Shown one piece after another: positions 13,400 to 31,017 of a stretch of 64,000 nucleotides of DNA. The stretch spans positions 5,330 through 69,329 of the forward strand of contig JABFGH010000016.1 in NCBI GenBank assembly GCA_013112585.1, written 5' to 3'. The position numbers and the translations under genes were made by a program. Origin of the DNA: Ignavibacteriota bacterium. GTDB lineage: Bacteria; Bacteroidota; Ignavibacteria; Ignavibacteriales; Melioribacteraceae. The notes below the pieces were generated by a model. The model saw nothing but the letters and a program-made list of their open reading frames with translations, was not told where the DNA came from and did not search any database. How positions within the stretch are numbered: the stretch's first letter is position 1; the number at the start of each line of letters is the position of its first letter.

Positions 13400-14623
13400 A
13401 TGAAAAAATTTGAAATACCAATAAAATATAAAAGCTCAATAATCAGCCGGATTAAAAGTTTAAGAAAAGATGATGATCCGCGGAAAAATGATTTTAGTCC
13501 GACCAGGCTTGATTTTGGACCCGTTGAATTTTTAATTGCCCGCCATTTTGGTTTTTGCTACGGTGTTGAAAACGCAATTGAAATTGCATACCGCACGATA
13601 GAAGAAAACCCCGGCAAGCGAATATTTTTATTGAGTGAAATGATTCACAATCCCGGTGTGAATGACGACCTGCTTTCGCGCGGCGTAAAATTTATTATGG
13701 ATACCGAGGGGAATCATTTAATTAATTGGGACGAATTAACTTCGGAAGACATTGTTATTGTTCCTGCATTCGGCACTTCTGTTGAAATTGAAAAGAAACT
13801 TAACTCTCTCGGCATTGACTCTTATGCCTTCAACACCACTTGTCCATTTGTAGAAAAAGTTTGGAACCGTGCATCATCACTCGGAAAAAAAGAACACACA
13901 ATTATTATTCACGGAAAACACAAACACGAGGAAACCAGGGCAACGTTTTCACACAGCTCTCAAAATGCGCCTTCGTTAATAGTGCGTGACTTAAATGAGA
14001 CCAAATTTCTCGGTGAAGTAATCCTCGGTAAAAAATCGAAAGAAGAGTTTTATAAATTTTTTGAAGGCAAATATTCTAAGAACTTTAACGTTGATGAAGA
14101 TTTGCTGAAAGTAGGAGTTGTTAATCAAACAACAATGCTGGCAACAGAAACGGAAGAGATAGCTAACTACTTAAAAAAAGTAATGATTGAAAAATATGGC
14201 ATTGAAAATTTGAAAGCTCACTTTGCCGATACGCGTGATACTCTTTGCTACGCTACAAATGATAATCAAAATGCTACCTACGGATTGATGGAAGAAGACG
14301 CTGATTTTGCAATTGTTGTAGGCGGTTATAATAGCTCTAATACAACACACCTGGTTGAATTGCTTGAAGAGAAATTTGAAACATTTTTCATTTCATCGGC
14401 AGATAAAATTATTGACGGCAGCAGAATAAAGCATTTTAATATTCATGATAAAAAGGAAATAATTACAAATGATTTTATTCCTTCTAAATCTAAAATTAAA
14501 ATTACCGTAACAAGCGGTGCATCATGCCCGGATGCTGTAGTTGATGATGTATTAAATAAAGTTTTATCTTTATTCAGCGGTACAAAAAGTATTGAAGAGG
14601 CTGTTAACGATTTACAGAATTAG
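13400..14623 (+). CDS. ispH: 4-hydroxy-3-methylbut-2-enyl diphosphate reductase (long form)
   Basis: 407 aa. GFCYGVENAI, the CPFV and NQTTM motifs and the SSNT segment are typical of IspH/LytB. Confidence 0.88.
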   Translation: MKKFEIPIKYKSSIISRIKSLRKDDDPRKNDFSPTRLDFGPVEFLIARHFGFCYGVENAIEIAYRTIEENPGKRIFLLSEMIHNPGVNDDLLSRGVKFIMDTEGNHLINWDELTSEDIVIVPAFGTSVEIEKKLNSLGIDSYAFNTTCPFVEKVWNRASSLGKKEHTIIIHGKHKHEETRATFSHSSQNAPSLIVRDLNETKFLGEVILGKKSKEEFYKFFEGKYSKNFNVDEDLLKVGVVNQTTMLATETEEIANYLKKVMIEKYGIENLKAHFADTRDTLCYATNDNQNATYGLMEEDADFAIVVGGYNSSNTTHLVELLEEKFETFFISSADKIIDGSRIKHFNIHDKKEIITNDFIPSKSKIKITVTSGASCPDAVVDDVLNKVLSLFSGTKSIEEAVNDLQN

Positions 14624-14765
14624 AATAATATAACACTGCCATTAGTTCATCAAGTAAGCCATTAAACAAGTGCCACAACTTCACACCCTCTGTCATAATT
14701 TCCAGCCATAATTTCTTGAATAATAGAAAGTGCGAAATCATTCGATTTTCAACACTTTTTATTAC

Positions 14766-14781
14766 TGGCATGTCACTTGCA
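14766..14781 (+). promoter_or_regulatory. sigma-54 (-24/-12) type promoter candidate
   Basis: TGGCATGTCACTTGCA has the GG-N10-GC spacing and matches TGGCAY-N5-TTGCA. It lies about 50 nt upstream of the Hsp20-like start at 14832. Confidence 0.5.
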
Positions 14782-14831
14782 TATATAGGCGCAAACAATA
14801 ACCAATACGCAATTAAGCAAGGAGAAATAAA

Positions 14832-15125
14832 ATGTATTTCAGAAATTATAACAACAAAATGTATTCAACAAGAATTAAAGATAATGAAGGTGATGTAGTT
14901 TTGGAATATCCGGTACCGGGATTTGAAAAGAAGGATTTAAATCTTTCAGTTAAGGAAAACTATCTCTTATTAAAAGGCGAAAGCGGCGAATTAAAATTTG
15001 AAGATGCGTTTAGATTAGGAAATAAAATTGATCAGGAAAATATTAACGCCGAGGTTGTGAACGGAGTGCTTGTAGTAAAGCTTAAGAAGTCTTTGCCCGA
15101 TAAAAAAGAGATAGCAATTAACTAA
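14832..15125 (+). CDS. small Hsp20/alpha-crystallin-like protein (short)
   Basis: 97 aa. Pattern VPGF.KKDL...V....L.L.GE...E......F....I...I.A...NGVL.V.L.K. AAGGAG ribosome-binding site lies 7 nt upstream. Confidence 0.7.
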   Translation: MYFRNYNNKMYSTRIKDNEGDVVLEYPVPGFEKKDLNLSVKENYLLLKGESGELKFEDAFRLGNKIDQENINAEVVNGVLVVKLKKSLPDKKEIAIN

Positions 15126-15130
15126 ATGCG

Positions 15131-15156
15131 AAAGCCCCCTTGCGGGGCTTTTTTAT
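15131..15156 (+). terminator. intrinsic terminator
   Basis: AAAGCCCC-cttgc-GGGGCTTTTTTATT immediately after the Hsp20-like stop codon. Confidence 0.7.
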
Positions 15157-15159
15157 TGC

Positions 15160-15448
15160 CTCCACTTTAACCATTCCTTAAAAAATCTACTTTGTTAAAC
15201 TCCTCTTCCACTTGCAGAATTTTATCCGCAATCACTTCTGCACAATTAAAATCGTAATAGTCTTTAAATTTTTTTCGCCATAACTATCTATCAAAATTTA
15301 TTTTTAATTTATCTGCCGGGCTTTTGATTTTATTTATTGAACAGGAATGTCCATGTGGATAAATATTAGTTGCTTCTTATAGTTTGCCGGGAATGATTTT
15401 CAACCTTGAGCTTTTGAATTGATTTTTCTATCAATCTTGTTTCTTCAT
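15160..15448 (-). pseudogene. heavily decayed tyrosine-recombinase (intI-like) N-terminal remnant, copy 1
   Basis: The minus-strand reading MKKQD(frameshift)LIEKSIQKLKVENHSRQTIRSN*YLSTWTFLFNK* aligns with the better-preserved copy at 19080-19493 (TKRQDIIDKFNKQLSIENYSNQTIKNYLSALKLFLDW). It contains multiple stops and frameshifts. Confidence 0.35.
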
Positions 15449-15453
15449 ATATA

Positions 15454-15533
15454 ATATTTTAGATTGGTTGATATAAACAACTAAATTTAACATATAGGCC
15501 CGCTATATACAATGTGTGTATTGGGATGTTGTG
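15454..15533 (+). repeat. attI-like / attC-like segment, copy 1 (about 85% identical to 19497-19578)
   Basis: AATATTTTAGATTGGTTGATATAAACAACTAAATTTAACATATAGGCCCGCTATATACAATGTGTGTATTGGGATGTTGTG. It contains AACAAC ... CTATATAC ... GTTGTG like the attC sites downstream. Confidence 0.5.
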
Positions 15534-15647
15534 CTTAATTTAAACAGAGAGATGCAAATTTCTTAAAGAAAAGATTGGAAAGTGTAAACGAGAAAAAAAC
15601 GGGAATTAATGGGAAATGGATTTCAACTAAAATCATAATTTTGAAAA

Positions 15648-16061
15648 GTGACTTATCAAATGGAATACTTGGGTTCTTGTTTATGCAAAGGAATTAAATT
15701 TAAAGTTATAGGTGACTTTGAGAGTTTTTATTTATGCCATTGCAGATATTGTAGGAAAGACACAGGGTCTGCTCATGCTGCAAATTTGTTTTCCACAGCA
15801 GCTAAACTAGAATGGATAAAAACGGAAACTGAAATTAAAATATTTCAACCACATAAAAGTAACCATGTGAAAGCCTTTTGTACAAATTGTGGTTCAGCTC
15901 TGCCCAATTTACAAATGGACGGTAAACTTTTAGTAGTTCCAGCAGGATGTCTAGATACAAAATTAGAAAAACGACCTTGTGCACATATTTTTATCTCAAA
16001 CAAAGCAAGTTGGGATGATTCGTTGGAAGAAATAAAGAAATTTAAACGATTCCCAGAATAA
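15648..16061 (+). CDS. GFA-family (glutathione-dependent formaldehyde-activating / CENP-V-like) zinc protein; cassette 1
   Basis: Cys pattern C.C......CHC..C.K..G....... and FCTNCGS. ATG at 15660 (MEYLGSCLC) is an alternative to the GTG start. Confidence 0.7.
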   Translation: MTYQMEYLGSCLCKGIKFKVIGDFESFYLCHCRYCRKDTGSAHAANLFSTAAKLEWIKTETEIKIFQPHKSNHVKAFCTNCGSALPNLQMDGKLLVVPAGCLDTKLEKRPCAHIFISNKASWDDSLEEIKKFKRFPE

Positions 16062-16157
16062 GAAATAGATATAAAGAAATTTGCTTCCGTTTTTTGATAT
16101 AAATAGACATTGAGAAACAACTTAATGGAGATTAATCTATTAGTGAAATAAAACTAA

Positions 16158-16286
16158 GCACAACAATGTATAAAAATAATGCCGAGAAGGTAGTAATATT
16201 AAGGGTTGTAGCCCGCTTCAACTTTCTTGTTACTTAACAGGAAAGTGCCGCGCAGTCGGCTACTATTCTTTTACTAAACGTTAACC
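16158..16286 (+). repeat. attC-like site 1
   Basis: GCACAAC-AATGTATAAAAATAATGCCGA ... TCGGCTACTATTCTTTTACTAAAC-GTTAACC. The arms are imperfectly complementary with bulges. Confidence 0.6.
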
Positions 16287-16309
16287 TTCATTAGAAGGAA
16301 GAAAAACCA

Positions 16310-17077
16310 ATGATAAAATTCTTTAGAAAAATTAGACAAAATTTACTTTCAGAAGGTAAAACTGGAAAATATTTGAAGTATGCGATTGGAGAAATTGTTC
16401 TTGTCGTCATTGGAATTCTAATTGCCTTGCAAATTAACAATTGGAACGAGGCAAGAAAAACAAGAACTAAAGAAGTTTCCTATTTGACAAATATTAAGAG
16501 TGATTTAGAATTGACTAATTTAGAAATTGACCAATATATATCCTCTCGAAAGCAACGTGCAATTGCTGCCAATAGTGTCGTTGAGCATTATAATGGAAAA
16601 CCTGTGACAGATTGGAATGAATTTAACAGACATACCATAGATGTATATACTTGGCAAAGGTTTTATCAAATAGATAATACGTTTCAAGAATTAATGAATT
16701 CTGGAAACTTTGAGATAATTTCTAATGATTCAATAAAAAATGGATTGCTTACGGTTGACCAACTCTATAAAAAACTCAAATACACAGAAGACCATTTCCG
16801 ATATGACGCAGAAATTACATTATACGAGCCTTCTTACAGAATGACTGACATTTATTCGCTATCCAATAATTATTTCTATCAAAAATCGAAAGGAAAGGAA
16901 GGTGCTTTAGGAAATTTAACCGAAGATGACTTTAAGGAAATGCTGAATGACCAAACACAAAAGAATGGATTTGCATTTGCAGCAATGTATTTCAAAGGGT
17001 GGAATACGCAACTATTGAATATAAAAGAGAAAAATGAGAAAATTATTGAGTTGATAAATAATGATTTAGAGGAGTGA
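16310..17077 (+). CDS. membrane-anchored protein with conserved N-terminus MIKFFRKIRQ..L (family recalled as DUF6090); cassette 2
   Basis: 255 aa with a single N-terminal TM (IGEIVLVVIGILIALQINNWNE). A paralog lies at 20621. Confidence 0.65.
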   Translation: MIKFFRKIRQNLLSEGKTGKYLKYAIGEIVLVVIGILIALQINNWNEARKTRTKEVSYLTNIKSDLELTNLEIDQYISSRKQRAIAANSVVEHYNGKPVTDWNEFNRHTIDVYTWQRFYQIDNTFQELMNSGNFEIISNDSIKNGLLTVDQLYKKLKYTEDHFRYDAEITLYEPSYRMTDIYSLSNNYFYQKSKGKEGALGNLTEDDFKEMLNDQTQKNGFAFAAMYFKGWNTQLLNIKEKNEKIIELINNDLEE

Positions 17078-17090
17078 AAAAATAACGAAA

Positions 17091-17286
17091 GCACAACAAC
17101 GTATATAGCTCATAGCAAATCAGTTGCTTAATCGAAGTTAAGGCATATTTGGAATGTCGCCAAATTTTTAAATTTGACGATTTCCAATAAAAAAGATAAA
17201 TAGTAAAATTTAAAAATCTAGCTTGTGCTTAATCTGAAAAAATAGCTAATTTACACGCTACGGGCTATATACAAGACCGTTGTGTG
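17091..17286 (+). repeat. attC-like site 2 (long)
   Basis: GCACAACAACGTATATAGC ... GCTATATACAAGACCGTTGTGTG, with an internal palindrome TTGGAATGTCGCCAAATTT..AAATTTGACGATTTCCAA. Confidence 0.55.
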
Positions 17287-17318
17287 TAATTATTAGCTAT
17301 TAAACCAAAATAATAACT

Positions 17319-18887
17319 ATGTTCAGTAGCACTTATGATACAATAATTATAGGTTCTGGCGCCGGGGGATTGACTGCAGCGGTTGCACTTGCACAAGCAG
17401 GTCAGAACGTTTTGGTATGTGAACAACACGAAGTACCTGGAGGATGGACTCATTCTTTTACCTTAGAAGGTTACAGATTCAATACAGGAGTTCATTATAT
17501 CGGTGAACTTGGAGAAGGAGAAAGATTACGTAAAATTTATGAAGGACTAGGTGTTTCAAATGATCTAACCTTTCTTGAACTAAACCCTGATGCATACGAC
17601 CATATTCTCATTGGGGACTACCAATTTGATATTCCTAAGGGCAAAGAAGCCTTCATTCATCGGTTAAAAGAACGGTTCCCGGATGAAGCAAAAGGGATTG
17701 ACTTATTATTTGAACAACTAGCCAACATCTATTCGCAATTACTAAATGTTATAGATGAAAAATGGTTCTCTTTGCTAAGATGTCCAACGGCACTTCCGTG
17801 GTTTACGAAATCCGGGGGTGACTTAATTAAGCACTATGTAAAAAATCCACTTTTGAGAGCAATTTTATTGGGGCAATGTGGAGCACATGGCTTGCCGCCC
17901 TCACAAGTATCTGCGGCAATTCATGCTGCAATCATACAACATTATATAGAGGGAGCGTATCATCCGCTTGGCGGTGGAATGACGATCGCACGAGCTATGT
18001 TGAGAGCACTTAAAAAAGCCAATGGTACTATCCGTTTGAATACCTCAGTTAATGAAATCATTTTAGATAAACAAAGAGCAATCGGAGTAAGGCTAAGTAA
18101 TGGAGAAATCGTCAGAAGCAAGCATGTCATTAGTAATGCTGACCCTTATTTCACATTCAATAAACTTATTGGAAAAACGAATTTAAGTAGAAAGCTAAAA
18201 AGTAAGCTCAAAAAAGTGAGATGGTCGACTTCCTGCTTTAGCTTATATCTTGTTATTGACTGCGATTTAAGGAAAATGGGTTTGGACTCCGGAAATTATT
18301 GGATTTATTCAAATGAAAATATCGAACAATTATATCAACTAGGATTAACAGACTATAATGTACATAACTTACCAGCGGTAATGTTTGTGACTGCCACCTC
18401 ACTTAAGGATCCGAGTAAATCAAAGAGCAATCATCATCAACTGGAGGTGTTTTCTTTTGTTAGTTACGACTTTTTTAAACGTTGGGAAAATCAAGTTTCG
18501 GGACAAAGAGATGCCGAATACATTCAACTCAAAGAAAAGATTAGCAATAATATGATTTCTTCCCTTGACCATCGATTTCCAGGTATAAGCAAATCGATAA
18601 TACTAAAAGAACTAGGCACTCCGCTAACTAATTACCACTATATTAAAGCGCATAGAGGAAATATCTATGGAATAGATAAGAGTATTTGGCAAGCGGGTCC
18701 ATTGGGCTTCCGAAACAGAACCGAATTTAAAGATTTGTACATGTGCGGCTCCAGCACCTTGGCACACGGTATAGCTTATGCTTCATATTCCGGGCTTATT
18801 GCAGCATCAAAGCTATTAAGATGTCGCCCTATGGATCTCTTGAAACAAAATGGTCCTGAACTAGAGATTTTGCAATGTGAAAGATGA
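17319..18887 (+). CDS. FAD/NAD(P)-dependent oxidoreductase, phytoene-desaturase (CrtI)-like; cassette 3
   Basis: 522 aa with an N-terminal dinucleotide-binding motif YDTIIIGSGAGGLTAA..LA.AG..V.V.E. Confidence 0.75.
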   Translation: MFSSTYDTIIIGSGAGGLTAAVALAQAGQNVLVCEQHEVPGGWTHSFTLEGYRFNTGVHYIGELGEGERLRKIYEGLGVSNDLTFLELNPDAYDHILIGDYQFDIPKGKEAFIHRLKERFPDEAKGIDLLFEQLANIYSQLLNVIDEKWFSLLRCPTALPWFTKSGGDLIKHYVKNPLLRAILLGQCGAHGLPPSQVSAAIHAAIIQHYIEGAYHPLGGGMTIARAMLRALKKANGTIRLNTSVNEIILDKQRAIGVRLSNGEIVRSKHVISNADPYFTFNKLIGKTNLSRKLKSKLKKVRWSTSCFSLYLVIDCDLRKMGLDSGNYWIYSNENIEQLYQLGLTDYNVHNLPAVMFVTATSLKDPSKSKSNHHQLEVFSFVSYDFFKRWENQVSGQRDAEYIQLKEKISNNMISSLDHRFPGISKSIILKELGTPLTNYHYIKAHRGNIYGIDKSIWQAGPLGFRNRTEFKDLYMCGSSTLAHGIAYASYSGLIAASKLLRCRPMDLLKQNGPELEILQCER

Positions 18888-19044
18888 AACAACAATCAAT
18901 TCAACCATTATTGCTGATGAAAATATATTTTGAAGAATATAGAAATTCGATAGGTGTGATATTTACATACATAATATATCGAATAAGTTATTAGTTGTTT
19001 ATATGAAAAAGAATTCAATTGACTGATGAGATATAATATTTACA

Positions 19045-19075
19045 GCACACAACAATGTATAAGCGGCATTAAGAG
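19045..19075 (+). repeat. attC-like left arm only (truncated at the junction with the intI fragment)
   Basis: GCACACAACAATGTATAAGCGGCATT matches the left arms of sites 1 and 7. No matching right arm appears before the inverted recombinase fragment starts. Confidence 0.45.
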
Positions 19076-19079
19076 GACC

Positions 19080-19493
19080 GCTTAAACGTAACCCGCCGGA
19101 ATAGATAAGCATTAAATTAGTTTTGTGTTTTAAGTCTTTAGTTACATCTAAAATTTTGTTTATATCTTTTACAGATAATACTGTTGGCAGGTGTGTTGGT
19201 TTTCTTAGTTTTATCTCTAAAGCTTTTGGAACCGGTTTGTAAAATACTTTTAAATACAAAAAACTAATGGCAGCGATTACTTGCTTCATTGTTGAGAAGG
19301 CATATTTTCTATGCTCTTCGCAATAAAATAAATAATTTTGTATATCGTTATCGGTTACTTTTTTTGCTTTTGAATTTTCAATCCAATCTAAAAACAACTT
19401 TAATGCTGATAAATAATTTTTGATTGTCTGATTGGAGTAGTTTTCAATACTTAATTGCTTATTGAACTTATCTATAATATCTTGTCTTTTCGT
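19080..19493 (-). pseudogene. tyrosine recombinase (integron-integrase-like) N-terminal fragment, copy 2; start codon mutated and C-terminal catalytic domain missing
   Basis: SAM-like N-domain: ENYSNQTIKNYLSALKLFLDW......VTDNDIQNYLFY......AFSTMKQVIAAISFLYLKV......LRKPTHLPTVLSVKDINKIL......HKTNLMLIYSGGLRLS. Homology then stops. The position aligned to the ATG of copy 1 is ACG here. Confidence 0.6.
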
Positions 19494-19496
19494 ATA

Positions 19497-19578
19497 AAAT
19501 ATTTTAGATTGCTTGATATGAACAACTAAATATAACGTATAATCCTGCTATATACATTGTGTGTATTGGGATGTTGTA
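19497..19578 (+). repeat. attI-like / attC-like segment, copy 2
   Basis: AAAATATTTTAGATTGCTTGATATGAACAACTAAATATAACGTATAATCCTGCTATATACATTGTGTGTATTGGGATGTTGTAG. Confidence 0.5.
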
Positions 19579-19597
19579 GTTCATTAAATAAAATGTT

Positions 19598-20461
19598 ATG
19601 AAAAAACAACTTAGCACTGCATTAATTATTATGGTAGGTATTTTCATTTCACAGAATGCTTACTGTCAAATTGAAACGGAAAAGATAGAATTCATCAGTG
19701 AGGGTAATCGATTGAATGCTGAATTATTCTTTCCCTTATTGGATACGGTAAGTCCTGCAATAGTTTTAATGCATGGATATCCTGGTGGAGAAGGGGATCC
19801 CTTAGGTCTTGCAAAGAAACTAAGTGCTCTGGGAATAATTGCCTTTGTCTTTAATTATCAAGGAACATGGAGTAGTGAAGGAGATTTTAATTTTGAAAAT
19901 TCTATGATTGATGCGCGAAATGCCGTCAGGCTGTTGAAACAAAAAAATATCGCAGAAAAATTCAAAATTGACACAAGCAACATCGTAATTGGAGGGTATA
20001 GTTTTGGAGGTGCGATGGCTTTAGCTGGAGCAATCTACTATTCAGAAATCCAAAGAATTATTGCAATAGGCGGCCCAAATGAAGCAGTTTATGCTAGAAA
20101 AATGCTTGCCAACAAGAGTGTTTATAATATGTTTCTTAATATGTTTAAGAGTTTCGAATACCCTGATGGGCCTATAAAAGTTAATTCTGAATTATGGATA
20201 AATAACTTCTTAAATGATTATCAAAAACTTGATTTGATATTACATTCGGATTCATTAAAGAATAAGGATATACTCTTAATTGGGGGTTGGGATGATCAAA
20301 ATGTTTTACTCGAAGAACATCAAATTCCTTTATATAGAAAGCTTAATGCCATTGGTGCTTCAAGGATAAAATTATTAGCATTCAAGACAGATCACTCTTT
20401 TAATGGAGTAAAGAATAATATGGCCCAAGAAATATATGACTGGATTTTCGAAAAGAATTAA
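19598..20461 (+). CDS. secreted alpha/beta hydrolase; cassette 4
   Basis: 287 aa with a signal peptide, GYSFGG nucleophile elbow (G.S.G), and late D and H residues. Confidence 0.75.
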   Translation: MKKQLSTALIIMVGIFISQNAYCQIETEKIEFISEGNRLNAELFFPLLDTVSPAIVLMHGYPGGEGDPLGLAKKLSALGIIAFVFNYQGTWSSEGDFNFENSMIDARNAVRLLKQKNIAEKFKIDTSNIVIGGYSFGGAMALAGAIYYSEIQRIIAIGGPNEAVYARKMLANKSVYNMFLNMFKSFEYPDGPIKVNSELWINNFLNDYQKLDLILHSDSLKNKDILLIGGWDDQNVLLEEHQIPLYRKLNAIGASRIKLLAFKTDHSFNGVKNNMAQEIYDWIFEKN

Positions 20462-20465
20462 CGAA

Positions 20466-20597
20466 CTACAACATTTTGTATAAGTAATGGCACTGAGAGT
20501 GCTATGTATCAAAGTTTTTAGCCTGCTCAAAGTGAGTAGTAGTTTGACAGGAAAGTGCCACGTAATCTGCCACTACTCATACAATTTACCGTTAACC
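20466..20597 (+). repeat. attC-like site 4
   Basis: CTACAAC-ATTTTGTATAAGTAATGGCA ... TGCCACTACTCATACAATTTACC-GTTAACC. Confidence 0.6.
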
Positions 20598-20620
20598 TTC
20601 ATTAGAAGGAAGAAAAACCA

Positions 20621-21388
20621 ATGATAAAATTCTTTAGAAAAATTAGACAAAGACTTCTCTCTGAAAATAAATTCAGTAAGTATATTCTATATGCCGTTGG
20701 CGAAATTATTCTGGTCGTTTTCGGAATTTTGATTGCCCTTCAGATAAATAATTGGAATGAATATCAAAAAATGCAAAAAGAAGAGAAAGCAATTTTATTC
20801 AATCTAAAAAACGAGTTCGATAGTAATCTTCCAAGGCTAAGAGAGAATATATTAACCCATGAGCTAGTTCAAAAAGCTTGTGTTGAAATTTTAGCAAGGA
20901 TGGGGCCAAATCCCAAGATACTACAGAACAGTTGCATTGACAGTTTATTGGCAATTTCTTATGTATCACCACGTTTTAAGTATAATAATGGTGCATTAAA
21001 ATCAGTAATTAACTCAGGTAAATTAGCGATTATACGAAATAAATCCATTCGCCATAAAATAGCCGAGTTTCCTGGAATAATAGAGAGTGGCATCATAACT
21101 GAAACTTCATTGAGAGAAATATCATGGAGTAAATATGCTCCTTTATTAGAGCAGAATACTCTAACATCAAAAGCACTTGAGGCGGTTGGCTTGTTTAAAG
21201 GAATGTTGCCAAAAATTAAGGAAACTGAATTCAGTTACAATCAACAAGAGCTTCTTTCAAATGCTAATTTCGAAAACCACTTGGTAAATAGAGTGCTTAT
21301 TACTCAAGTTGTAATTAATGAATTAAATTGGCTAGAAACTGAAATTAAAAACGCCATTGAAGATATTAATCGAGAATTAGAAAAATAA
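20621..21388 (+). CDS. paralog of 16310-17077 (MIKFFRKIRQ family, recalled as DUF6090); cassette 5
   Basis: 255 aa. The first ~47 aa are nearly identical to the paralog and the remainder is diverged. Confidence 0.65.
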   Translation: MIKFFRKIRQRLLSENKFSKYILYAVGEIILVVFGILIALQINNWNEYQKMQKEEKAILFNLKNEFDSNLPRLRENILTHELVQKACVEILARMGPNPKILQNSCIDSLLAISYVSPRFKYNNGALKSVINSGKLAIIRNKSIRHKIAEFPGIIESGIITETSLREISWSKYAPLLEQNTLTSKALEAVGLFKGMLPKIKETEFSYNQQELLSNANFENHLVNRVLITQVVINELNWLETEIKNAIEDINRELEK

Positions 21389-21393
21389 CGAAA

Positions 21394-21577
21394 GCACAAC
21401 ATTGCATAAAAGCAATAACGGCTGAATTTCCTGCTCGGAAATTCAAACCCTTTTAGTAAATTGGTCAATAATCGGAATAGTTAGTATATGCAGTTTCTCC
21501 ATCTGACTTGTACGCTCAAGCGTACACCAGGTAGTCGCTGACATCCGTTACTGACTTTTATACAAACTCGTTATGTG
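21394..21577 (+). repeat. attC-like site 5
   Basis: GCACAAC-ATTGCATAAAAGCAATAACGG ... CCGTTACTGACTTTTATACAAACTC-GTTATGTG. Confidence 0.55.
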
Positions 21578-21684
21578 TAATTAGCGAAACCCATCTAAAT
21601 TCAAAATATTAAAAAATTTATTTGCATAATATGTTATATATTTCTCTCTTTATGTTAGATATATTTAACTAAAGAGGTGTTTTT

Positions 21685-22098
21685 ATGAAAAAGACAAGAA
21701 CAATACTGTATCTGCTAATCGGCTTGACAGTAACATTTGTTGTGGGAATTACAATGTATTCTACTGTGGCTGAAATAAAACCAATTGAGTATTTGATTTA
21801 TGGTATAGTTGGACTATTAGTAATATTCAGTATACTACGAGTTTTTAAAAATCTGAAAGATGAGAACAAAGGATTGACTACTGAAGATGAATTGAGCAAA
21901 AAAATAAAATTGAAAGCTGGTGCAAATGCATTTATGGCTTCATTTTATTTATGGACTATGATTTTGTTATTTACTATGGATAGTAGTTTTAGTAATGAGA
22001 TTATTCTTGGAATTGGCATTTTTGGTATGGGAGTTCTGTTTGTTGGATTTTGGGTTTATCATAATAACAAAGGAATTAATGATGGAAACCAGAATTAA
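21685..22098 (+). CDS. four-TM membrane protein (DUF2178-like partner of small HTH regulators); cassette 6
   Basis: 137 aa, hydrophobic. It overlaps the downstream HTH gene by 17 nt. Confidence 0.55.
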
Positions 22099-22276
22099 GG
22101 AATTAAGAGCGAAACATAATTTCACTCAACAAGACCTTGCAACTAAAGTGAATGTGAGACGTGAAACAATAGGATTTCTTGAAAAAGGAAAATATAATCC
22201 ATCGTTAAAGTTAGCTTATGATATTTCAAAAATATTTAATCTAAAAATTGAAGAAGTGTTTATTTTCGATGAATAA
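22082..22276 (+). CDS. XRE/Cro-type helix-turn-helix transcriptional regulator (64 aa)
   Basis: [64 protein letters not shown] is the classic short Cro/C1 HTH. The internal ATG at 22082 is chosen over the 21995 ORF start. Confidence 0.8.
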
Positions 22277-22287
22277 TAGAATTTATT

Positions 22288-22458
22288 ATGAAGAATATAA
22301 ATTCAACTCGTTATATAATCGGTATTATTATCGGACTTGGACTTGGTTTAATTTTAGGAATTATCCTTGATAAAATTGGTTTAGTAATTGTAATAGGACT
22401 TCCACTTGGTGCTGGTCTTGGATTTATTTTAACAATGAGAAATGATGAAAAGTTATAG
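22288..22458 (+). CDS. small Gly-rich two-TM membrane peptide (56 aa)
   Basis: MKNINSTRYIIGIIIGLGLGLILGIILDKIGLVIVIGLPLGAGLGFILTMRNDEKL. It is not in the ORF track because it is under 60 aa. It is co-oriented and tightly spaced after the HTH gene. Confidence 0.45.
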   Translation: MKNINSTRYIIGIIIGLGLGLILGIILDKIGLVIVIGLPLGAGLGFILTMRNDEKL

Positions 22459-22627
22459 GAACTACAAGCAATTATTTTATATAGGGTTAATTCTTGAAAT
22501 ATCAGGTTCCTTGCTATTGACAATATTTAAAGAAAATAATAACTCAAGTGGAGTTGTTTTTATTGCCGTTGGCAGTAAATTTTTTATAATAAATTTGAAG
22601 AATATAAATATCTGGAATAAGCAATAA
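22442..22627 (+). CDS. small membrane protein (61 aa), hypothetical
   Basis: It overlaps the previous ORF end (ATGATGA) and has a hydrophobic core. Confidence 0.35.
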   Translation: MMKSYRNYKQLFYIGLILEISGSLLLTIFKENNNSSGVVFIAVGSKFFIINLKNINIWNKQ

Positions 22628-22794
22628 AAGTCCATAACAAAGTGTATAAATCATTGGTCAATAATCAATTAAGTCAAAGTTAGTATCTATAAATAAAATG
22701 AATAGTAAGCTGAAAATGAAGTGATCTAAGTGCCCAACGCTTCTTACACAAACCATAATACTGCAAGCAGATTTAGCACAAACAGAAAACTACA

Positions 22795-23370
22795 ATGATA
22801 GAAAAAGCATATTTAGGACTAATACTGATTTTTTTCATTCTTGCGTTTGCAGTTAGGAATATTAAAACCTATCTATCGACAAAGAAATCAATTAGAGGAA
22901 AGTCATTAAAATTGACAATCTCGGTTATTATTTCTACAATAATTTATTGTTTGATTATTTTACGATTAACAATACTTAAACCTAAATTTATTTTTGAAAT
23001 TGACTTGCCTAAATTTATTAATACAATAGGCTTATTAATTGTTTTCCTCGGATTCGTTATAGGAATACTTGCTTTAATTGCCATGAAAGACTCTTGGAGA
23101 GTTGGGATTAAATATGACCAAAAGACTGACTTGATAACCACGGGTATTTATAGTATTAGTCGTAATCCATACTTTTTATCATATAACATATTAATATTTG
23201 GCTACATTTTGATTTTTACTTCACCAATATTAATCGTTCTATACATTATACTTGTGGTCGTATTTCATAGAATGATTTTGGAAGAGGAAAAATATTTACA
23301 GTCAATCCAAGGTGCCCAATATGAGGAGTATAAAAGTAAAGTAAATAGATATTTTACGATTAAGCAATAA
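22795..23370 (+). CDS. isoprenylcysteine carboxyl methyltransferase (ICMT)/phospholipid methyltransferase-family membrane protein; cassette 7
   Basis: 191 aa, multi-TM. TTGIYSISRNPYFLSY...EE.YL....G..Y..Y is the ICMT-family C-terminal signature. Confidence 0.7.
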   Translation: MIEKAYLGLILIFFILAFAVRNIKTYLSTKKSIRGKSLKLTISVIISTIIYCLIILRLTILKPKFIFEIDLPKFINTIGLLIVFLGFVIGILALIAMKDSWRVGIKYDQKTDLITTGIYSISRNPYFLSYNILIFGYILIFTSPILIVLYIILVVVFHRMILEEEKYLQSIQGAQYEEYKSKVNRYFTIKQ

Positions 23371-23379
23371 GACACGAAA

Positions 23380-23497
23380 GCACAACAATGCATAATAATA
23401 ATAGCCGTAAGAGTAGTAAATTCAAGGAGTGTAGTCCGTTTAACTTTATTCTGTTTTACAACGCCATCGGCTACTATTCCTATACTAACCGTAAGCA
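23380..23497 (+). repeat. attC-like site 7
   Basis: GCACAAC-AATGCATAATAATAATAGCCG ... CGGCTACTATTCCTATACTAACC-GTAAGCA. Its central part is homologous to site 1. Confidence 0.55.
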
Positions 23498-23529
23498 AAC
23501 ATTAAAAATAAAACTGAAAGAGAAAATTT

Positions 23530-24033
23530 ATGAGTAGAGGTTTTGTAAAAGAAGGAGATCAAGAGGAGACTCCTTTAGTAACACCAAGAGCACATCTTCC
23601 TGCCGGCGTTCTCAATTATGTCACTCCCAATGGTCTAAAAGAATTGGAGCATGAGCGGAATTTGTTAGTTGAAGAACGGAAAACATTAATAGAGCAGGAT
23701 AGCGAGAATAATCGTGTTCAGATAAATTACATCACAGCCAAGTTGGGCTTGCTTGAGGAACGAATAAGCTCAGCTAAATTAGTTGAATTATCAAACCAGC
23801 CTCAAAATAAAGTTTACTTCGGGGCAACAATAACACTCTACAAAACAAAGGAAGATTGCGAAAGTCAATATCAGATTGTAGGTGTAGATGAAGCAGATGT
23901 TTCCAAAAATAAAGTCTCGTTTTTATCCCCTATTGCCAAAGCTTTAATAAATAAAAAAGTAGGTGATGAAATTATACTTCAAACACCTAAAGGTAAAAGA
24001 TTTATGAAAATAGAAGCTATTGATTATAAATAA
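23530..24033 (+). CDS. GreA/GreB-family transcription elongation factor-like protein; cassette 8
   Basis: 167 aa. N-terminal coiled coil (T..G...L..E...L) plus a C-terminal Gre domain (V.FG..V....ED......Y.IVG..EAD.....VS..SPIA.AL..K.VGD). Confidence 0.7.
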   Translation: MSRGFVKEGDQEETPLVTPRAHLPAGVLNYVTPNGLKELEHERNLLVEERKTLIEQDSENNRVQINYITAKLGLLEERISSAKLVELSNQPQNKVYFGATITLYKTKEDCESQYQIVGVDEADVSKNKVSFLSPIAKALINKKVGDEIILQTPKGKRFMKIEAIDYK

Positions 24034-24206
24034 TTAACATGTTATATAATGAATGGTAATATTATTGACAGAACTAAATTAGAAAATTCCAGCCGAAGTA
24101 CCGGCAGGGAAATTGCGATATAAAAGTGTGTAACCCGCTCCAACTTCATTACGGTTTGAAAGGATACTGCCGTGCTTCGGCTGTTATTCTTTTACAAACG
24201 TTAGGA
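24032..24206 (+). repeat. attC-like site 8
   Basis: AATTAAC-ATGTTATATAATGAATGG ... CGGCTGTTATTCTTTTACAAAC-GTTAGGA, which is close to the canonical GTTRRRY right core. Confidence 0.55.
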
Positions 24207-24234
24207 AACATTTAATCACGTACTAAGGACAACC

Positions 24235-24651
24235 ATGAATCCAATAATCAAAAATATATTAGCTGTTATAGCCGGTTGGTTAGGCGGCAGTGCAATTAAC
24301 ATGGGTCTCATCCAAATTGGCAATATGTTATTTCCCATCGAGGGTATAGATACCAATGACATGGAAGCATTGGCGAATATAATGCCAACTTTGAGCTTCG
24401 AATATTTTATTTTTCCTTTTTTGGCTCACGCATTAGGTGCTTTGGTTGGTGCCGCCATTGCCGGTTGGATAGCCGCAAGTCATAAAATGAAATTTTCACT
24501 GGGAGTTGGTGGTTTATTCCTATTGGGCGGAATAATGGTCAATTACATGCTGCCCGGACCAACATGGTTTGCAGTCGTGGACATTGTTTTCGCTTATATA
24601 CCAATGGCGTGGATTGGTGGAAAAATAGCTGAAAAGGTGTCTAGCAAATAA
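24235..24651 (+). CDS. four-TM membrane protein, unknown function; cassette 9 (last)
   Basis: 138 aa, Gly/Ala-rich hydrophobic segments. Confidence 0.55.
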   Translation: MNPIIKNILAVIAGWLGGSAINMGLIQIGNMLFPIEGIDTNDMEALANIMPTLSFEYFIFPFLAHALGALVGAAIAGWIAASHKMKFSLGVGGLFLLGGIMVNYMLPGPTWFAVVDIVFAYIPMAWIGGKIAEKVSSK

Positions 24652-24653
24652 AT

Positions 24654-24980
24654 TTACTTTCCAACCAACTTAACCCGCCTCTTCTTTTTTCTGCCCGACT
24701 CTGTTTTATTGGATGCCGCAGGTGCAAGCGGACCAACACCATCGGCAGTTAATCTATTTTTGCTGATCTTATATTTTGCTTTTAATTCTTCAACTACCGC
24801 CGCGGCTCTATCTTTTGATAGCTTCATATTGTGAGAATATGTTCCCGTCATATCTGTATGCCCGACAACATAAATATTCAACTCCGAGTTATCTTTCAGC
24901 AGCTTTACAATCTCCTTAAATGTCGGCTCCGATTCCGGTTTGATAGTTGATTTATCAGTATCAAAGTAAATACCGTACAA
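24654..24980 (-). CDS. OmpA-family C-terminal (peptidoglycan-binding) domain only; probably a truncated gene
   Basis: YFDTDKSTIKPES...VVGHTD..G....N..LS..RA..V...L......RL...G.G...P is the OmpA_C motif. There is no N-terminal domain or signal peptide, and the frame opens with TTG. Confidence 0.5.
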   Translation of the reverse strand: MYGIYFDTDKSTIKPESEPTFKEIVKLLKDNSELNIYVVGHTDMTGTYSHNMKLSKDRAAAVVEELKAKYKISKNRLTADGVGPLAPAASNKTESGRKKKRRVKLVGK

Positions 24981-25069
24981 GGCAATTTTAATTCAACCCC
25001 GCTAGAGTTGAACTGCTAGTAATCCAAACATAAGCCTTTCTTTTGCTGCATGGTCTCGAACTTCGCAAA

Positions 25070-25975
25070 TTATTTTAAAAGTATCATCTTACGTGTTTGA
25101 GAAAAATCACTTGCAGTTAATCGATAAATATAAGTTCCCGAAGGCAGTCCGGCTGAATTCCAATCGGCATTATATTGCCCAGGGGATAGAAACTCATTCA
25201 CGAGCACCGCAGTTTTTTCACCAAGCATATTGTAAATTTCCAATTTCACATGTCCCTCTTCGGCAATTGAAAAACTAATATTTGTAGCCGGGTTAAACGG
25301 ATTAGGATAGTTCTGTTCAAGAGAAAATTCCGATACAACAATATCATCTTCTTTTGTAATTCCTGTAGTGCCGGTAAAAGTTAGATCATCCAAAAGCATG
25401 TATGTTCCATATGCAGCGGGAATGTCATCGTCTTCCAGTTCCCCAATTTGTATTTGCAGTTGTGCTTTTACCGCATTACCATTGCCGCCAACTGAGTAAT
25501 CTATTGGAATTGTAAAACTCTGCCAGGTAGATACTGTTTCAGAAAGCAGCCAGGTTTCAGTTTGAGCAACTGTTATACCTTGTGCATCAATTAAAGTAAT
25601 AACAAAATGAGGACCTAACAGTAACCCCGGTGTTGAAGGGTGGAATTGATAATACCCTTGCAGCCCTCCATAATTTTGACTTATAGGAAAGGATGGATTT
25701 AAAACATCTCCGGGATATAAATATGGTATAGCAGGAACCGGTGGAGCAGGAGGAAACGTAACTTCAATTAACTCAGCTCTTAAGGATGAGTTTCCCGAAT
25801 GAGCAACGGCAGATTGTGTAACGTTTGTATAAAGCTGTGAGTTTACTATATACCAGCCATCAAGGCTGCTGCCGGTCCAGTTCTCAAAACTCGCATTTGG
25901 TATCTCTTGGGCAATTATTGTGATCGGCAATATTATACTTAACGCTATAAAACATGTCATTTTTTTTATATTCAT
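25070..25975 (-). CDS. secreted protein with T9SS C-terminal sorting domain
   Basis: Signal peptide. N-terminal IPNASFENW motif. C-terminus LEQNYPNPFNPATNISFSI..EGHVKLEIYNMLGEK...L......G.Y...W......PSGTYIYRL. Confidence 0.75.
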   Translation of the reverse strand: MNIKKMTCFIALSIILPITIIAQEIPNASFENWTGSSLDGWYIVNSQLYTNVTQSAVAHSGNSSLRAELIEVTFPPAPPVPAIPYLYPGDVLNPSFPISQNYGGLQGYYQFHPSTPGLLLGPHFVITLIDAQGITVAQTETWLLSETVSTWQSFTIPIDYSVGGNGNAVKAQLQIQIGELEDDDIPAAYGTYMLLDDLTFTGTTGITKEDDIVVSEFSLEQNYPNPFNPATNISFSIAEEGHVKLEIYNMLGEKTAVLVNEFLSPGQYNADWNSAGLPSGTYIYRLTASDFSQTRKMILLK

Positions 25976-26006
25976 ATCTAAGTCCTATATTTTAATATTC
26001 AATAAA

Positions 26007-26885: not shown

Positions 26886-27012
26886 AGTTGTCTCCTCTTT
26901 TTACTATTTATAATTAACTATCCGAAATCAACCTAATTGAGAAGGTTTGATAAATCAATTACGCATATGAGGTATTTTTAAAATGGAATTTTTAGGGAGG
27001 GATGATAAAATT

Positions 27013-27657: not shown

Positions 27658-27700
27658 TTAATTACTTTTTATTCATAATAACACTTGATGACTCATTTCG

Positions 27701-30907: not shown

Positions 30908-31017
30908 TAGAAAATTTTTCCGGGACGATAATAAAAATTGTTAAGTTGGTTGTGGGTCTGAATTAATGATGAATTTAAGTTATCATAACTTAAAATTCAA
31001 GCGTTGAAATGAAACAA

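Follow-up and report, generated by a model that had tools for sequence, protein, structure and literature searches.

The stretch of DNA analysed here (the window, 64,000 nt from an Ignavibacteriota bacterium) contains a region, 15157-24651, that raises the question of what kind of system assembled nine functionally unrelated gene units in a single orientation (Table 1). An earlier note, made from the sequence alone, had read the region as an integron-like cassette array, and the ORFs of the window together with Pfam matches bear out its nine co-oriented units (all on the forward strand) in the families named. The array has a GC content of 32.6%, compared with 38.3% in the left flank and 35.1% in the right flank. 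An imperfect hairpin site, starting with ..AAC and ending with GTT.., lies 3' of 8 of the 9 units, as had been claimed for most of them, and the two repeats that had been quoted as examples are present at 17091 (GCACAAC...GTTGTGT, ending at 17285) and 20466 (CTACAAC...GTTAACC, ending at 20597). The terminal unit, which adjoins the 3' end of an opposite-strand OmpA-domain ORF, has no recognisable 3' site, and its membrane protein gave no match in Pfam and NCBIfam. A promoter was sought in the region and none was identifiable, with the counts of terminator-like and promoter-like sequences at chance level; the cassettes would presumably be expressed from the platform end.

Table 1. Positions of platform copies, integrase remnants, cassettes and hairpin sites in the window (R1, covariance model described in the text)
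Feature	Position	Strand	Content and support
Integrase remnant a	15290..15437	-	Internal-deletion pseudogene with stops; about residues 5-27 fused to 255-283
Platform copy a	15434..15543	+	Integrase gene 5' end and attI-like site; core 15502-15530, GCTATATACAATGTGTGTATTGGGATG|TT; crossover G15528|T15529
Cassette 1	15529..16280	+	GFA-family protein, ORF 15648-16061; Pfam GFA, E 1.5e-23
Site s1 of cassette 1	R'' 16158-16164, R' 16280-16286	+	R1 88 bits; seed sequence
Cassette 2	16281..17279	+	DUF6090 protein 16310-17077; Pfam DUF6090
Long site s2 of cassette 2	17091-17285	+	195 nt; arm duplex energy -12.4; R1 weak, 14.8 bits
Cassette 3	17280..19087	+	FAD/amine-oxidase-type oxidoreductase 17319-18887; Pfam Amino_oxidase, NAD_binding_8
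Site s3x of cassette 3	19046-19094	+	Short, degenerate; R' = GTAACCC, one T missing; 5' motif match at 19045
Integrase remnant b	19080..19490	-	Residues 2-137, single open frame to LIYSGGLRL; broken exactly at s3x
Platform copy b	19479..19588	+	attI-like core 19547-19575; crossover G19573|T19574
Cassette 4	19574..20590	+	Alpha/beta hydrolase 19598-20461; Pfam hydrolase families
Site s4 of cassette 4	20466-20597	+	R1 111 bits; seed sequence
Cassette 5	20591..21569	+	Second DUF6090 protein 20621-21388; Pfam DUF6090
Long site s5 of cassette 5	21394-21576	+	183 nt; arm duplex energy -17.5; R1 16.4 bits
Cassette 6	21570..22754	+	Membrane protein 21685-22098; HTH_3 regulator about 22079-22276 (Pfam E 1e-14); small TM protein 22288-22458
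Site s6 of cassette 6	22632-22761	+	Non-seed; R1 65.3 bits, E 5e-12, full model length; R' decayed to ATA
Cassette 7	22755..23490	+	PEMT/ICMT-type methyltransferase 22795-23370; Pfam PEMT, ICMT
Site s7 of cassette 7	23380-23497	+	Non-seed; R1 56.4 bits, E 4e-10; R' = GTA
Cassette 8	23491..24199	+	GreA/GreB C-terminal-domain protein 23530-24033; Pfam GreA_GreB, E 1e-25
Site s8 of cassette 8	24068-24206	+	5' arm decayed; 3' arm and GTTAGGA intact; 3' motif present; arm duplex energy -14.7; R1 match partial, 9.4 bits
Terminal unit	24200..24651	+	138-aa membrane protein 24235-24651; ORF list

A naive scan for AAC...GTT hairpins gives 119 candidate pairs across the window, and the bare pattern is therefore unspecific, which, like the chance-level counts above, would suit generic intergenic elements (REP/MITE-like or terminators) lying among unrelated genes, with the recombinase fragments described below coming from an unrelated mobile element. 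This explanation is extremely improbable, as the specific motif and the model matches are confined to the array and to one strand. The 5' motif AAGCACAACAATGTATAA occurs five times, always in the array region and on the forward strand (0.25 expected; five reached in 0 of 100 shuffles), while GGCTACTATTCTTTTAC occurs three times (0.21 expected), once in each of sites 1, 7 and 8, for which a common internal sequence had been noticed before. The covariance model R1, whose seed comprises 13 sites from other loci (mostly other phyla) and two window sites, retrieves the non-seed sites s6 and s7 from the 64 kb, both on the forward strand. Outside the array no match improves on E ~1, and past 24206 there is no R1 match. 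R1 scores are poor for s2, s5, s3x and s8, which are called from their motif, the energy of the arm duplex and the logic of the boundaries; the bottom strands of s2 and s5 fold into long hairpins, in s2 with CACAAC paired with GTTGTG. In the comparison set of 83 related loci (939 kb; R1 cutoff E <= 0.01), 61 of 61 matches are found on that side of the integrase gene which holds the array, and on the array's strand, either upstream and antisense to the gene or downstream and co-oriented with it. Generic palindromes would also leave unexplained the complementarity between cassette ends, and the hairpins carry no T-runs.

The sites of this family open with an R'' box (..AAC), set off by a 3-nt spacer from an L stem of 16 positions; after a variable loop come the L' arm, a spacer of 5-7 nt (..ACC) and the closing R' box (GTT..). 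Compensatory changes occur in 11 of the 14 L-stem pairs in an independent MAFFT alignment, and in the model-fitted alignment of 61 sites the pairing cells reach 94.9% (63% when shuffled) with a covariation score of 0.711 (0.147 when shuffled; slid controls <=0.08). The arms are 16/16 nt long in 45 of the 61 sites, and the consensus is symmetric with no extrahelical or bulged bases; bulged pairing in the manner of attC boxes, as suggested earlier, is thus not the rule in this family. At two conserved positions, 5 nt apart, an A in the 5' arm faces a C in the 3' arm, which becomes a G.T wobble when the bottom strand is read; the first has A in 60 and C in 59 of the 61 sites, the second 47 A and 12 G opposite C in 54 of 61. 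Stability is higher for the bottom strand in 55 of 61 sites, and the asymmetry between G.T and A.C suggests bottom-strand use, so that the bottom strand is probably the one that folds and is recombined. The site type, about 131 nt long and with conserved internal sequence, is common to several phyla, which contradicts the view of the shared internal sequence as a host-specific homogeneous attC family, and the site model finds 0 of 7 class 1 attC sites.

The position of the crossover, between G and TT, is recorded in the cassette ends. When the 8 nt that follow G|TT at the 5' end of a cassette are compared with the 8 that precede AA|C in its own 3' site, 5.1 of 8 positions match on average, and 24 of 39 cassettes score 6-7; the mean is 2.4 for both the same-site control and random pairs. 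In the window, cassettes 1 and 4 match at 7 of 8 positions, as read directly from the sequence with the same measure (their attI junctions lie outside the 39-cassette table); the 5' end TTGTGCTTA of cassette 1 is the reverse complement of its own R'' TAAGCACAA, and that of cassette 4, TTGTAGTTC, of its own R'' GAACTACAA. Cassette 3 likewise begins with TTGTGTG, complementary to the R'' CACACAA of s3x, while both DUF6090 cassettes and cassettes 6 to 8 have no good own-end complementarity. Such complementarity is the signature of circular cassettes predicted to recombine at G|TT. Cassettes 2 and 5 share an identical first 60 nt after G|TT, with DUF6090 proteins just 37% identical.

The array contains two platform copies, which form a 110-nt direct repeat (85% identical), each adjoining an integrase remnant. 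With a reconstructed 283-aa relative as query, tblastn matches remnant a over residues 255-283 (15376-15290; 72% identity, E 3e-7) and 5-35 (15437-15339), leaving about 23 N-terminal residues and the last 29 residues. Remnant b shares 73% identity with a Melioribacteraceae integrase (tblastn, E 3e-66), contains Pfam Phage_int_SAM_4, and has Melioribacteraceae site-specific integrases as its homologues. The earlier note had placed recombinase fragments on the opposite strand at the head of the array; the strand is right for both, and the position is right for remnant a, whereas remnant b lies mid-array with its own copy of the attI-like region. Searched by tblastn with a full-length relative, the 64 kb gave matches to these two remnants alone, and the window therefore lacks a catalytic domain, as had been stated. 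Nearly all close relatives of the integrase are preceded by the same conserved attI-like sequence, roughly 60 nt ending in GA(T/C)G|TT, with divergence directly after it; it is conserved upstream of integrases from several phyla, and intact relatives have the same integrase-attI-array layout. Most of the 33 relatives examined keep an intact 280-aa integrase ORF; the gene is often a pseudogene. The family occurs in Ignavibacteriota, Calditrichota, Marinimicrobia, Bacteroidota and some Gammaproteobacteria, in sequences that are MAGs or drafts except for a few isolates (Marinicella pacifica, Flavobacterium ardleyense).

Xer proteins are core-gene products acting at a single chromosomal dif site. 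The intact integrase relatives, which are IntI/XerA-like, resemble archaeal XerA and bacterial XerC/XerD (PDB 5hxy, 4a8e, 1a0p) as two-domain simple tyrosine recombinases of the same length, with XerA as the best PDB sequence match in a colinear alignment and XerA_Arch (NF040815; 224 bits, just over its cutoff) as the top NCBIfam model. A module system of the Xer/dif type, comparable to pdif modules or IMEX elements, would have gene modules flanked by double-stranded dif-like sites on which a XerA/XerCD-like recombinase works. It would also agree with the lack of the IntI insertion, as the I2 helix is viewed in PMC7790495 as having made single-strand recombination possible, and double-strand recombination would then be the default chemistry. 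It is nevertheless very unlikely, as the sites are not 28-bp dif-like cores but 58-195-nt structures with a distal stem that covaries rather than being conserved, and are all directly oriented beside a dedicated attI. Moreover, the integrase gene is accessory, located beside cassette arrays, spread over several phyla and often a pseudogene, and the C-terminal SP(A/L)D tail (SPxD) is shared with IntI, including IntI1.

Sedentary chromosomal integrons and CALINs (Mazel 2006; Cury et al. 2016, PMC4889954) are similar in many respects. Their tyrosine recombinase gene is transcribed away from a conserved attI, and the array is polar, with cassettes that mostly hold a single gene, share one orientation and are unrelated in function. 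Each cassette ends in an imperfect hairpin that combines R boxes (..AAC / GTT..) with an L stem, a variable loop and a spacer that is unpaired and asymmetric. Further shared features are a G|TT crossover with own-end complementarity, integrase pseudogenes, decayed arrays and cassettes that differ between related genomes. The region may thus be taken for an ordinary remnant of this kind, a CALIN with an intI pseudogene and canonical IntI/attC in an under-sampled phylum, as complete integrons are reported from Ignavibacteriae in the IntegronFinder 2.0 paper (PMC9024848) and the integron integrase model TIGR02249 still gives 211 bits. This is unlikely, as those 211 bits fall in two stretches and below the cutoff of 265, the NF011946 cutoff is not reached either, and the IntI-specific domain of roughly 45 aa is missing from the intact relatives: IntI4 residues 185-247 are passed over in the alignment to VchIntIA (2a3v), and the 46 gap positions of the alignment to IntI1 (31% identity) cluster around IntI1 206-250. 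The absence of extrahelical bases and the failure of the site model on class 1 attC also speak against it, and the single site type across phyla is a further difference. As judged by NCBIfam cutoffs, IntI alignments and site geometry, the family departs from canonical integrons in two linked features, an integrase without the IntI-specific domain and sites with A/C positions in place of extrahelical bases. Since the integrase family lacks this domain, the term integron does not fit and integron-like is apt.

Divergent and co-oriented layouts both occur among canonical integrons. Integrons with an inverted integrase orientation, of the Treponema/Chlorobium type, were reportedly described by Boucher et al. 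in 2007. Five Bacteroidota relatives (L043, L048, L062, L070 and L078) are similar to these, as their array is downstream of and co-oriented with the integrase; the inverted-orientation integrases, however, have the IntI domain, and the layout of the window is divergent. Insertion-less relatives at the protein level are found in the 'integron-like' subgroup of simple tyrosine recombinases (Smyshlyaev et al. 2021, PMC8138268), whose proteins are not tied to cassette arrays or hairpin sites in the available text of that study. No description of such an integron-like family was found in the literature searched.

On this sequence evidence, the region is probably the fossil of an integron-like gene-capture platform belonging to a non-canonical family. 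R1, covariation, own-end complementarity, the layout of relatives and the different cassette at this locus in a related genome support the original proposal of an integron-like array with attC-like sites that cannot be mobilised in cis. A 280-aa tyrosine recombinase gene would have stood back to back with an attI-like site ending in GA(T/C)G|TT, where circular, mostly single-gene cassettes would have entered one by one through recombination of attI with the folded hairpin site of each cassette. Crossover between G and TT would explain why the 5' end of a cassette carries TTnnnnnn pairing with its own R''. Both integrase copies are destroyed: copy a has an internal deletion, and copy b stops after codon ~137 at a cassette site, where a deletion, either site-specific or through microhomology, probably fused two tandem platforms. 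Several R' boxes have decayed. What is left is a fixed set of nine accessory genes, immobile unless an integrase acts in trans.

Related genomes, in which cassette variation had been proposed as a check, differ at this locus between species. In the relative L084, whose IspH is 90% identical, the flanks correspond to those of the window as far as the hsp20 terminator and once more from window position 31018 onwards. The interval holds a remnant of the platform, a single cassette that differs from those of the window, and a single site whose own-end match is 9/9. Platform copy b is nearest to this platform remnant. The relative L085 (IspH 80%) has none of these. Within the species the contigs of five samples are 99.9-100% identical with invariant gene order, which is expected since the array has no integrase; the copy in the window is a fixed fossil.

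The array at 15157–24651 comprises nine co-oriented units between the hsp20 gene and an OmpA-domain ORF, and their ORF and domain content bears out the earlier note in describing them as functionally unrelated, while the inverted repeats that it quoted lie where it had placed them. The array has a GC content of 32.6%, compared with 38.3% in the left flank and 35.1% in the right flank. The 18-mer AAGCACAACAATGTATAA occurs five times at up to three mismatches, always on the plus strand and within the array region (0.25 expected), and GGCTACTATTCTTTTAC occurs three times (0.21 expected). An Rfam search and a tRNA scan gave no matches, and a sigma-70 promoter and terminator scan of the window gave counts at chance level, so that it is uninformative on a Pc-like promoter.

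Features of the array, its borders, recombinase remnants and hairpin sites (R1, covariance model of the sites; own-end match, agreement between the 5′ end of a cassette and its own 3′ site)
Feature	Position	Strand	Details
hsp20 gene	14832–15125		left border of array; own terminator
Remnant a (integrase pseudogene)	15437–15370 joined to 15376–15290	minus	~23 N-terminal residues + last 29 residues
110-nt repeat, copy a	15434–15543		beside remnant a
attI-like site, copy a	15502–15530
Cassette 1, GFA protein			5′ end TTGTGCTTA, own R″ TAAGCACAA; match 7/8, read from sequence
Site s1			R1 88 bits; seed
Cassette 2, DUF6090 protein			own-end match 3/8
Cassette 3, FAD/amine-oxidase-type oxidoreductase			paired with short site s3x; match ~5/8
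Remnant b (integrase pseudogene)	19490–19068 (aligned)	minus	residues 2–142, 73% identity; real homology stops at ..LIYSGGLRL
110-nt repeat, copy b	19479–19588		beside remnant b
attI-like site, copy b	19547–19575
Cassette 4, alpha/beta hydrolase			5′ end TTGTAGTTC, own R″ GAACTACAA; match 7/8, read from sequence
Site s4			R1 111 bits; seed
Cassette 5, DUF6090 protein			own-end match 3/8
Cassette 6, membrane + HTH_3 + small-TM module
Site s6	22629–22764		R1 65 bits, E 5e-12; non-seed
Cassette 7, PEMT/ICMT methyltransferase
Site s7	23377–23500		R1 56 bits, E 4e-10; non-seed
Cassette 8, GreA/B C-terminal-domain protein
Cassettes 6–8 together			low own-end match; R′ boxes ATA, GTA; s8 5′ arm decayed
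Terminal membrane protein			without recognisable site
OmpA-domain ORF	24654–24980	opposite to array units	right border

The recombinase matches in the whole 64 kb are two remnants only (tblastn, full-length relative as query), in agreement with the earlier statement that no catalytic domain is present, and the region of the IntI-specific additional domain is missing altogether from both. A copy of the 110-nt repeat (85% identity between copies) adjoins each remnant, which gives the window a pair of platform heads, the first opening the array and the second in mid-array. Recombinase fragments had been placed at the head of the array, which holds for remnant a but not for remnant b, as the latter lies mid-array with a platform head of its own. 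Some 20 loci of different phyla have in common a stretch of ~60 nt ahead of the integrase start (..ATATAACATATAGTCCCGCTATAYRCAAT..GTATATTGRGAYG|TT). It is carried by both window copies and ends in GA(T/C)G|TT, and divergence sets in immediately past GTT. As in canonical integrons, an attI-like site adjoins the integrase gene where the array begins, and in relatives with long flanks (L005, L033, L019, L015 and L003) the upstream region is made up of successive ORFs of one orientation, all directed away from the integrase. With eight clustered sites and no functional integrase in the 64 kb, the element may correspond to a CALIN (at least two attC sites) if its sites count as attC by the IntegronFinder definition.

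A simple search of the window for paired AAC...GTT motifs, with arm duplex energy taken into account, returns 119 candidates and is without useful specificity, so a covariance model (R1) was used instead, which was built from 15 sites aligned with MAFFT (s1 and s4 of the window and 13 sites of other loci). In this alignment RNAalifold predicts a 14-bp stem, where 11 pairs carry compensatory changes. Apart from the sites scored in the table, s5 and s2 give weak matches, and on the whole window with filters off no match beyond s1, s4–s7 and s2 is better than E ~1. Applied to 83 related loci (939 kb in total), R1 identifies 61 sites at E ≤ 0.01, of which 38 lie upstream of and antisense to the integrase, 23 downstream and co-oriented, and none elsewhere. 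The 23 downstream sites belong to Bacteroidota loci, among them that of the isolate Flavobacterium ardleyense KCTC 52644, which has 8 sites in 5.7 kb; the family thus occurs in divergent as well as “inverted” layouts, a trait that it shares with canonical integrons. Seven Bacteroidota relatives (L043, L048, L062, L070, L078, L051 and L060), whose integrases are 38–45% identical, have all their matches downstream and co-oriented. A shufflon or invertase system is rejected on account of the direct orientation of all sites.

The common layout in the relatives is ..[CG][AC][CT]AAC-A-NN, an L″ arm (G[CT]TATAAG.AAT...), a loop, an L′ arm (..ACT.CTCATA[GC]C) and xA(r)A[CA]C-GTT, where the AAC and GTT boxes are invariant in 58–61 of the 61 sites. 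Site length has its mode at ~131 nt, with some sites near 60 and some near 190, and R1 matches, including short flanks, span 58–195 nt (mode ~137). Across the 61 sites, 94.9% of cells are paired (63% in shuffles), the covariation score is 0.711 (0.147 in shuffles, at most 0.08 with slid partners), and 14/14 L pairs have changed on both sides; this alignment is fitted to R1, and the independent check is the 15-site MAFFT alignment. The sites are therefore imperfect hairpins with an L stem and an unpaired spacer, as are canonical attC sites, which are recognised by structure. The ~131-nt type, to which s1, s4, s6 and s7 belong, keeps to 129–133 nt and retains some internal sequence (AGTGCTAAA, GAAGG) across phyla, whereas the corresponding central part of canonical attC is the “variable” terminal structure. 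Although the central 80 nt of the ~131-nt sites are conserved to some extent in sequence, neither strand yielded a conserved secondary structure there.

If the cassettes recombine as circles at G|TT, the 5′ end TTnnnnnnnn of a cassette is predicted to pair with its own 3′ site nnnnnnnnAA|C, and not with the adjacent site. For 39 cassettes between consecutive R1 matches, with 8 variable positions each, the mean own-end match is 5.1/8, compared with 2.4 for the same site and 2.4 for random pairs. Scores of 6–7 are reached by 24 of the 39, and most low scores belong to intervals exceeding 1.5 kb, which probably contain an undetected site. R boxes and a G|TT crossover with the cassette's own R′ tail at its 5′ end are thus present, as in canonical integrons. 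The own-end matches show the units to be true mobile cassettes, and the copy in the window to be partly eroded (cassettes 2 and 5–8 decayed). The two DUF6090 cassettes are identical over their initial 60 nt (60/60; 16281–16340 and 20592–20651), a stretch that comprises the 5′ UTR and the codons of MIKFFRKIRQ and begins exactly at the G|TT crossover. Their proteins are only 37% identical over 165 aa, and at the nucleotide level identity is down to background beyond ~180 nt, a pattern resembling a mosaic tract, a gene-conversion tract or a conserved leader. Downstream of the oxidoreductase stop codon and ahead of s3x there is a weak second inverted repeat (18888–19000; GAAACAAC ... GTTGTTT, ~105 nt apart) with R-box-like ends and no L-box consensus, which may be the remnant of another site.

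The arms had been described as pairing with bulges, as those of attC do; the hairpin pairing stands, but bulges are not typical of the family, as none exists in the consensus of the 61 sites. The L arms are 16/16 nt in 45 of the 61 sites, and this symmetry leaves no consensus extrahelical base, the element that dictates strand choice in canonical attC. The two spacers of a site are unequal, with 3 nt on the R″ side and 5–7 nt on the R′ side. At two near-invariant positions, 5 nt apart, a 5′-arm A stands opposite a 3′-arm C (60/61 A with 59/61 C; 47 A and 12 G with 54/61 C). These conserved A·C mismatches on the top strand become G·T wobbles on the bottom strand, which is for this reason the more stable one (55/61 sites). 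When R1 was run on three plasmid integrons, none of 7 genuine class 1 attC sites was detected (aac(6′)-29a, blaVIM-2, aac(6′)-29b, arr-3, aacA4, aadB and aadA2). The sites also differ from Xer/dif modules, which have short dif-like double-stranded sites (~28 bp, two 11-bp arms and a 6–8-bp centre), whereas here 58–195 nt contain a covarying stem and a long loop. That the sites have no extrahelical bases fits with an integrase that lacks the domain by which IntI binds such bases. In the VchIntIA–VCR structure of MacDonald et al. from 2006, the IntI-specific domain reportedly makes this contact.

Remnant b is homologous to Melioribacteraceae “site-specific integrases”. A scan covering a single genome of each species yielded 536 relatives, of which the best 80 are from Ignavibacteriota, Calditrichota, Marinimicrobia, Bacteroidota, others and some Gammaproteobacteria, the last at 75–76% identity (e.g. 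the isolate Marinicella pacifica). Among 33 relatives checked, the ORF is intact (278–285 aa) in most, and several are pseudogenes like the window copies. A reconstructed full-length protein scores 224.4 bits with the NCBIfam model XerA_Arch (NF040815; cutoff 220), while scores with integron integrase TIGR02249 (211 bits in two stretches; cutoff 265), NF011946 (153; cutoff 435), XerD (190 bits) and XerC (184 bits) are all below cutoff. Structure-sequence alignments are colinear with XerA and fall into two blocks with VchIntIA, skipping IntI4 residues 185–247. With IntI1 the identity is 31%, and 46 gap positions lie mostly at ~206–250, which is the IntI-specific additional domain, while a C-terminal SP(A/L)D tail is common to both proteins. 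The family is thus IntI-like but without the domain defining IntI in canonical integrons (I2 helix region near patch III). A housekeeping Xer role is disfavoured, as the arrays, attI, frequent pseudogenes and cross-phylum spread argue against it. Three diverged integrase genes outside the window (L001:903–945, L002:884–926 and that of protein P0007), from families 67–74% identical in amino acids, share a 22-nt insertion (GGCGTAGCCATCCCTTTGGGAC / GGCATAGCCATCCCTTCGGGGC) which is absent from most relatives. The insertion, a small hairpin, separates the ..RHSFA codons from those of THLLDDG... and adds a stop codon and a frameshift, with the downstream C-terminal frame still intact and conserved; it could represent recoding, an excisable element or a shared pseudogene.

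The window organism is an “Ignavibacteriae bacterium” MAG (IspH 100% identical). Contigs from five other same-species samples are 99.9–100% identical over 14001–15452 and 16311–20619 with unchanged gene order, and the array is thus fixed within the species. All same-species public short-read assemblies break at window 15452, 16311 and 20619, positions that fall at the platform repeat and at the 5′ module identical in both DUF6090 cassettes; this accounts for the location of most relatives' integrase genes at contig ends. In the related locus L084 (IspH 90% identical), synteny extends to the hsp20 terminator (window 15155) and resumes at window 31018. Between these flanks lie an ABG-family transporter gene, a platform remnant of the first four integrase codons only with an attI closest to window copy b, and a single different cassette (140-aa ORF), whose site scores 36.6 bits with R1 (E 9e-6) and has an own-end match of 9/9 (TTGGGCAAC / GTTGCCCAA). 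In L085 (80%), platform or site was not found at the locus. The synteny comparison proposed for cassette variation thus reveals different content between species at this locus, but not the variation within the species, where gene order is the same in the five samples. In L084 the attI-like core (13560–13590) is split by a ~29-nt GC-rich hairpin, TATTTACCCCGCGACTTCATTTGCGGGGC, between GCTATAT and ATTGTGTGTATTGGGATGTT. Window 24654–31017, encoding an OmpA-domain-only ORF (108 aa, TTG start), two T9SS-sorted proteins, a LuxR-type response regulator and a large hybrid sensor kinase, also has no counterpart at the syntenic locus of L084, which suggests that the variable island may be larger than the cassette array and reach past it.

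The element in the window is decayed and fixed, and the array is unable to mobilise itself. Its family lacks two defining features of canonical integrons, the IntI domain and extrahelical bases, and possesses the others, i.e. attI, R boxes, the G|TT crossover, structured sites and variable cassette content, which support the proposed reading as an integron-like cassette array; it is thus a variant of integrons, not a member. IntegronFinder defines IntI by PF00589 plus the intI_Cterm profile, and current definitions and tools recognise integrons by the IntI-specific domain and attC with extrahelical bases. Single-strand cassette recombination is held in the field to have come about through acquisition of the I2 helix (PMC7790495; PMC4889954). 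Complete integrons have been reported in Ignavibacteriae (PMC9024848). Passages of Smyshlyaev et al. state that the insertion “is not fully conserved” in an integron-like subgroup and do not link arrays to it (PMC8138268), while a 2020 eLife abstract describes IntI as having moved to single-strand recombination by gaining the I2 helix (PMC7790495). A full-text literature search did not turn up any account of insertion-less IntI-like recombinases at the head of cassette arrays with hairpin sites, an absence which is no proof of newness. With confidence that falls a little short of even, the window is read as a fossil of a large, apparently undescribed, cross-phylum integron class, where an IntI-like recombinase without the I2/additional domain would recombine folded hairpin sites, and two G·T wobbles, not extrahelical bases, would mark the recombined strand. 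If true, single-strand cassette recombination would not need the I2 helix, or the class would represent an ancestral pre-I2 form of integron. Such a broad family, with full integron layout and G|TT crossover yet neither the IntI-specific domain nor extrahelical bases, would widen the gene-capture platforms of Bacteroidota, Ignavibacteriota, Calditrichota and Marinimicrobia, account for arrays that standard searches may miss, and provide a natural test case, with cultured hosts, for integron recombination evolving from Xer-like enzymes, although the window copy itself is merely a dead array of accessory genes.

As for the two platform heads, a tandem duplication of one platform is rejected, as the copies are merely 85% identical and their N-terminal coding parts strongly different, a divergence that speaks against any recent duplication. 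Remnant b ends with the codons of GGLRL (GGC GGG TTA CGT TTA), which read TAAACGTAACCCGCC on the array strand and overlap the 3′ end of s3x, where ..TTAAACG-TAACC differs from the end of s1 (..CTAAACGTTAACC) by one T. The heads may have been joined by a deletion between a cassette-site R′ in the upstream platform-a array and a look-alike secondary site within intI-b, which would have produced the present junction. The 9-mer TAACCCGCC at the end of the OmpA-domain ORF (~24670) recurs at the remnant-b junction (19089–19097), which may be due to chance.
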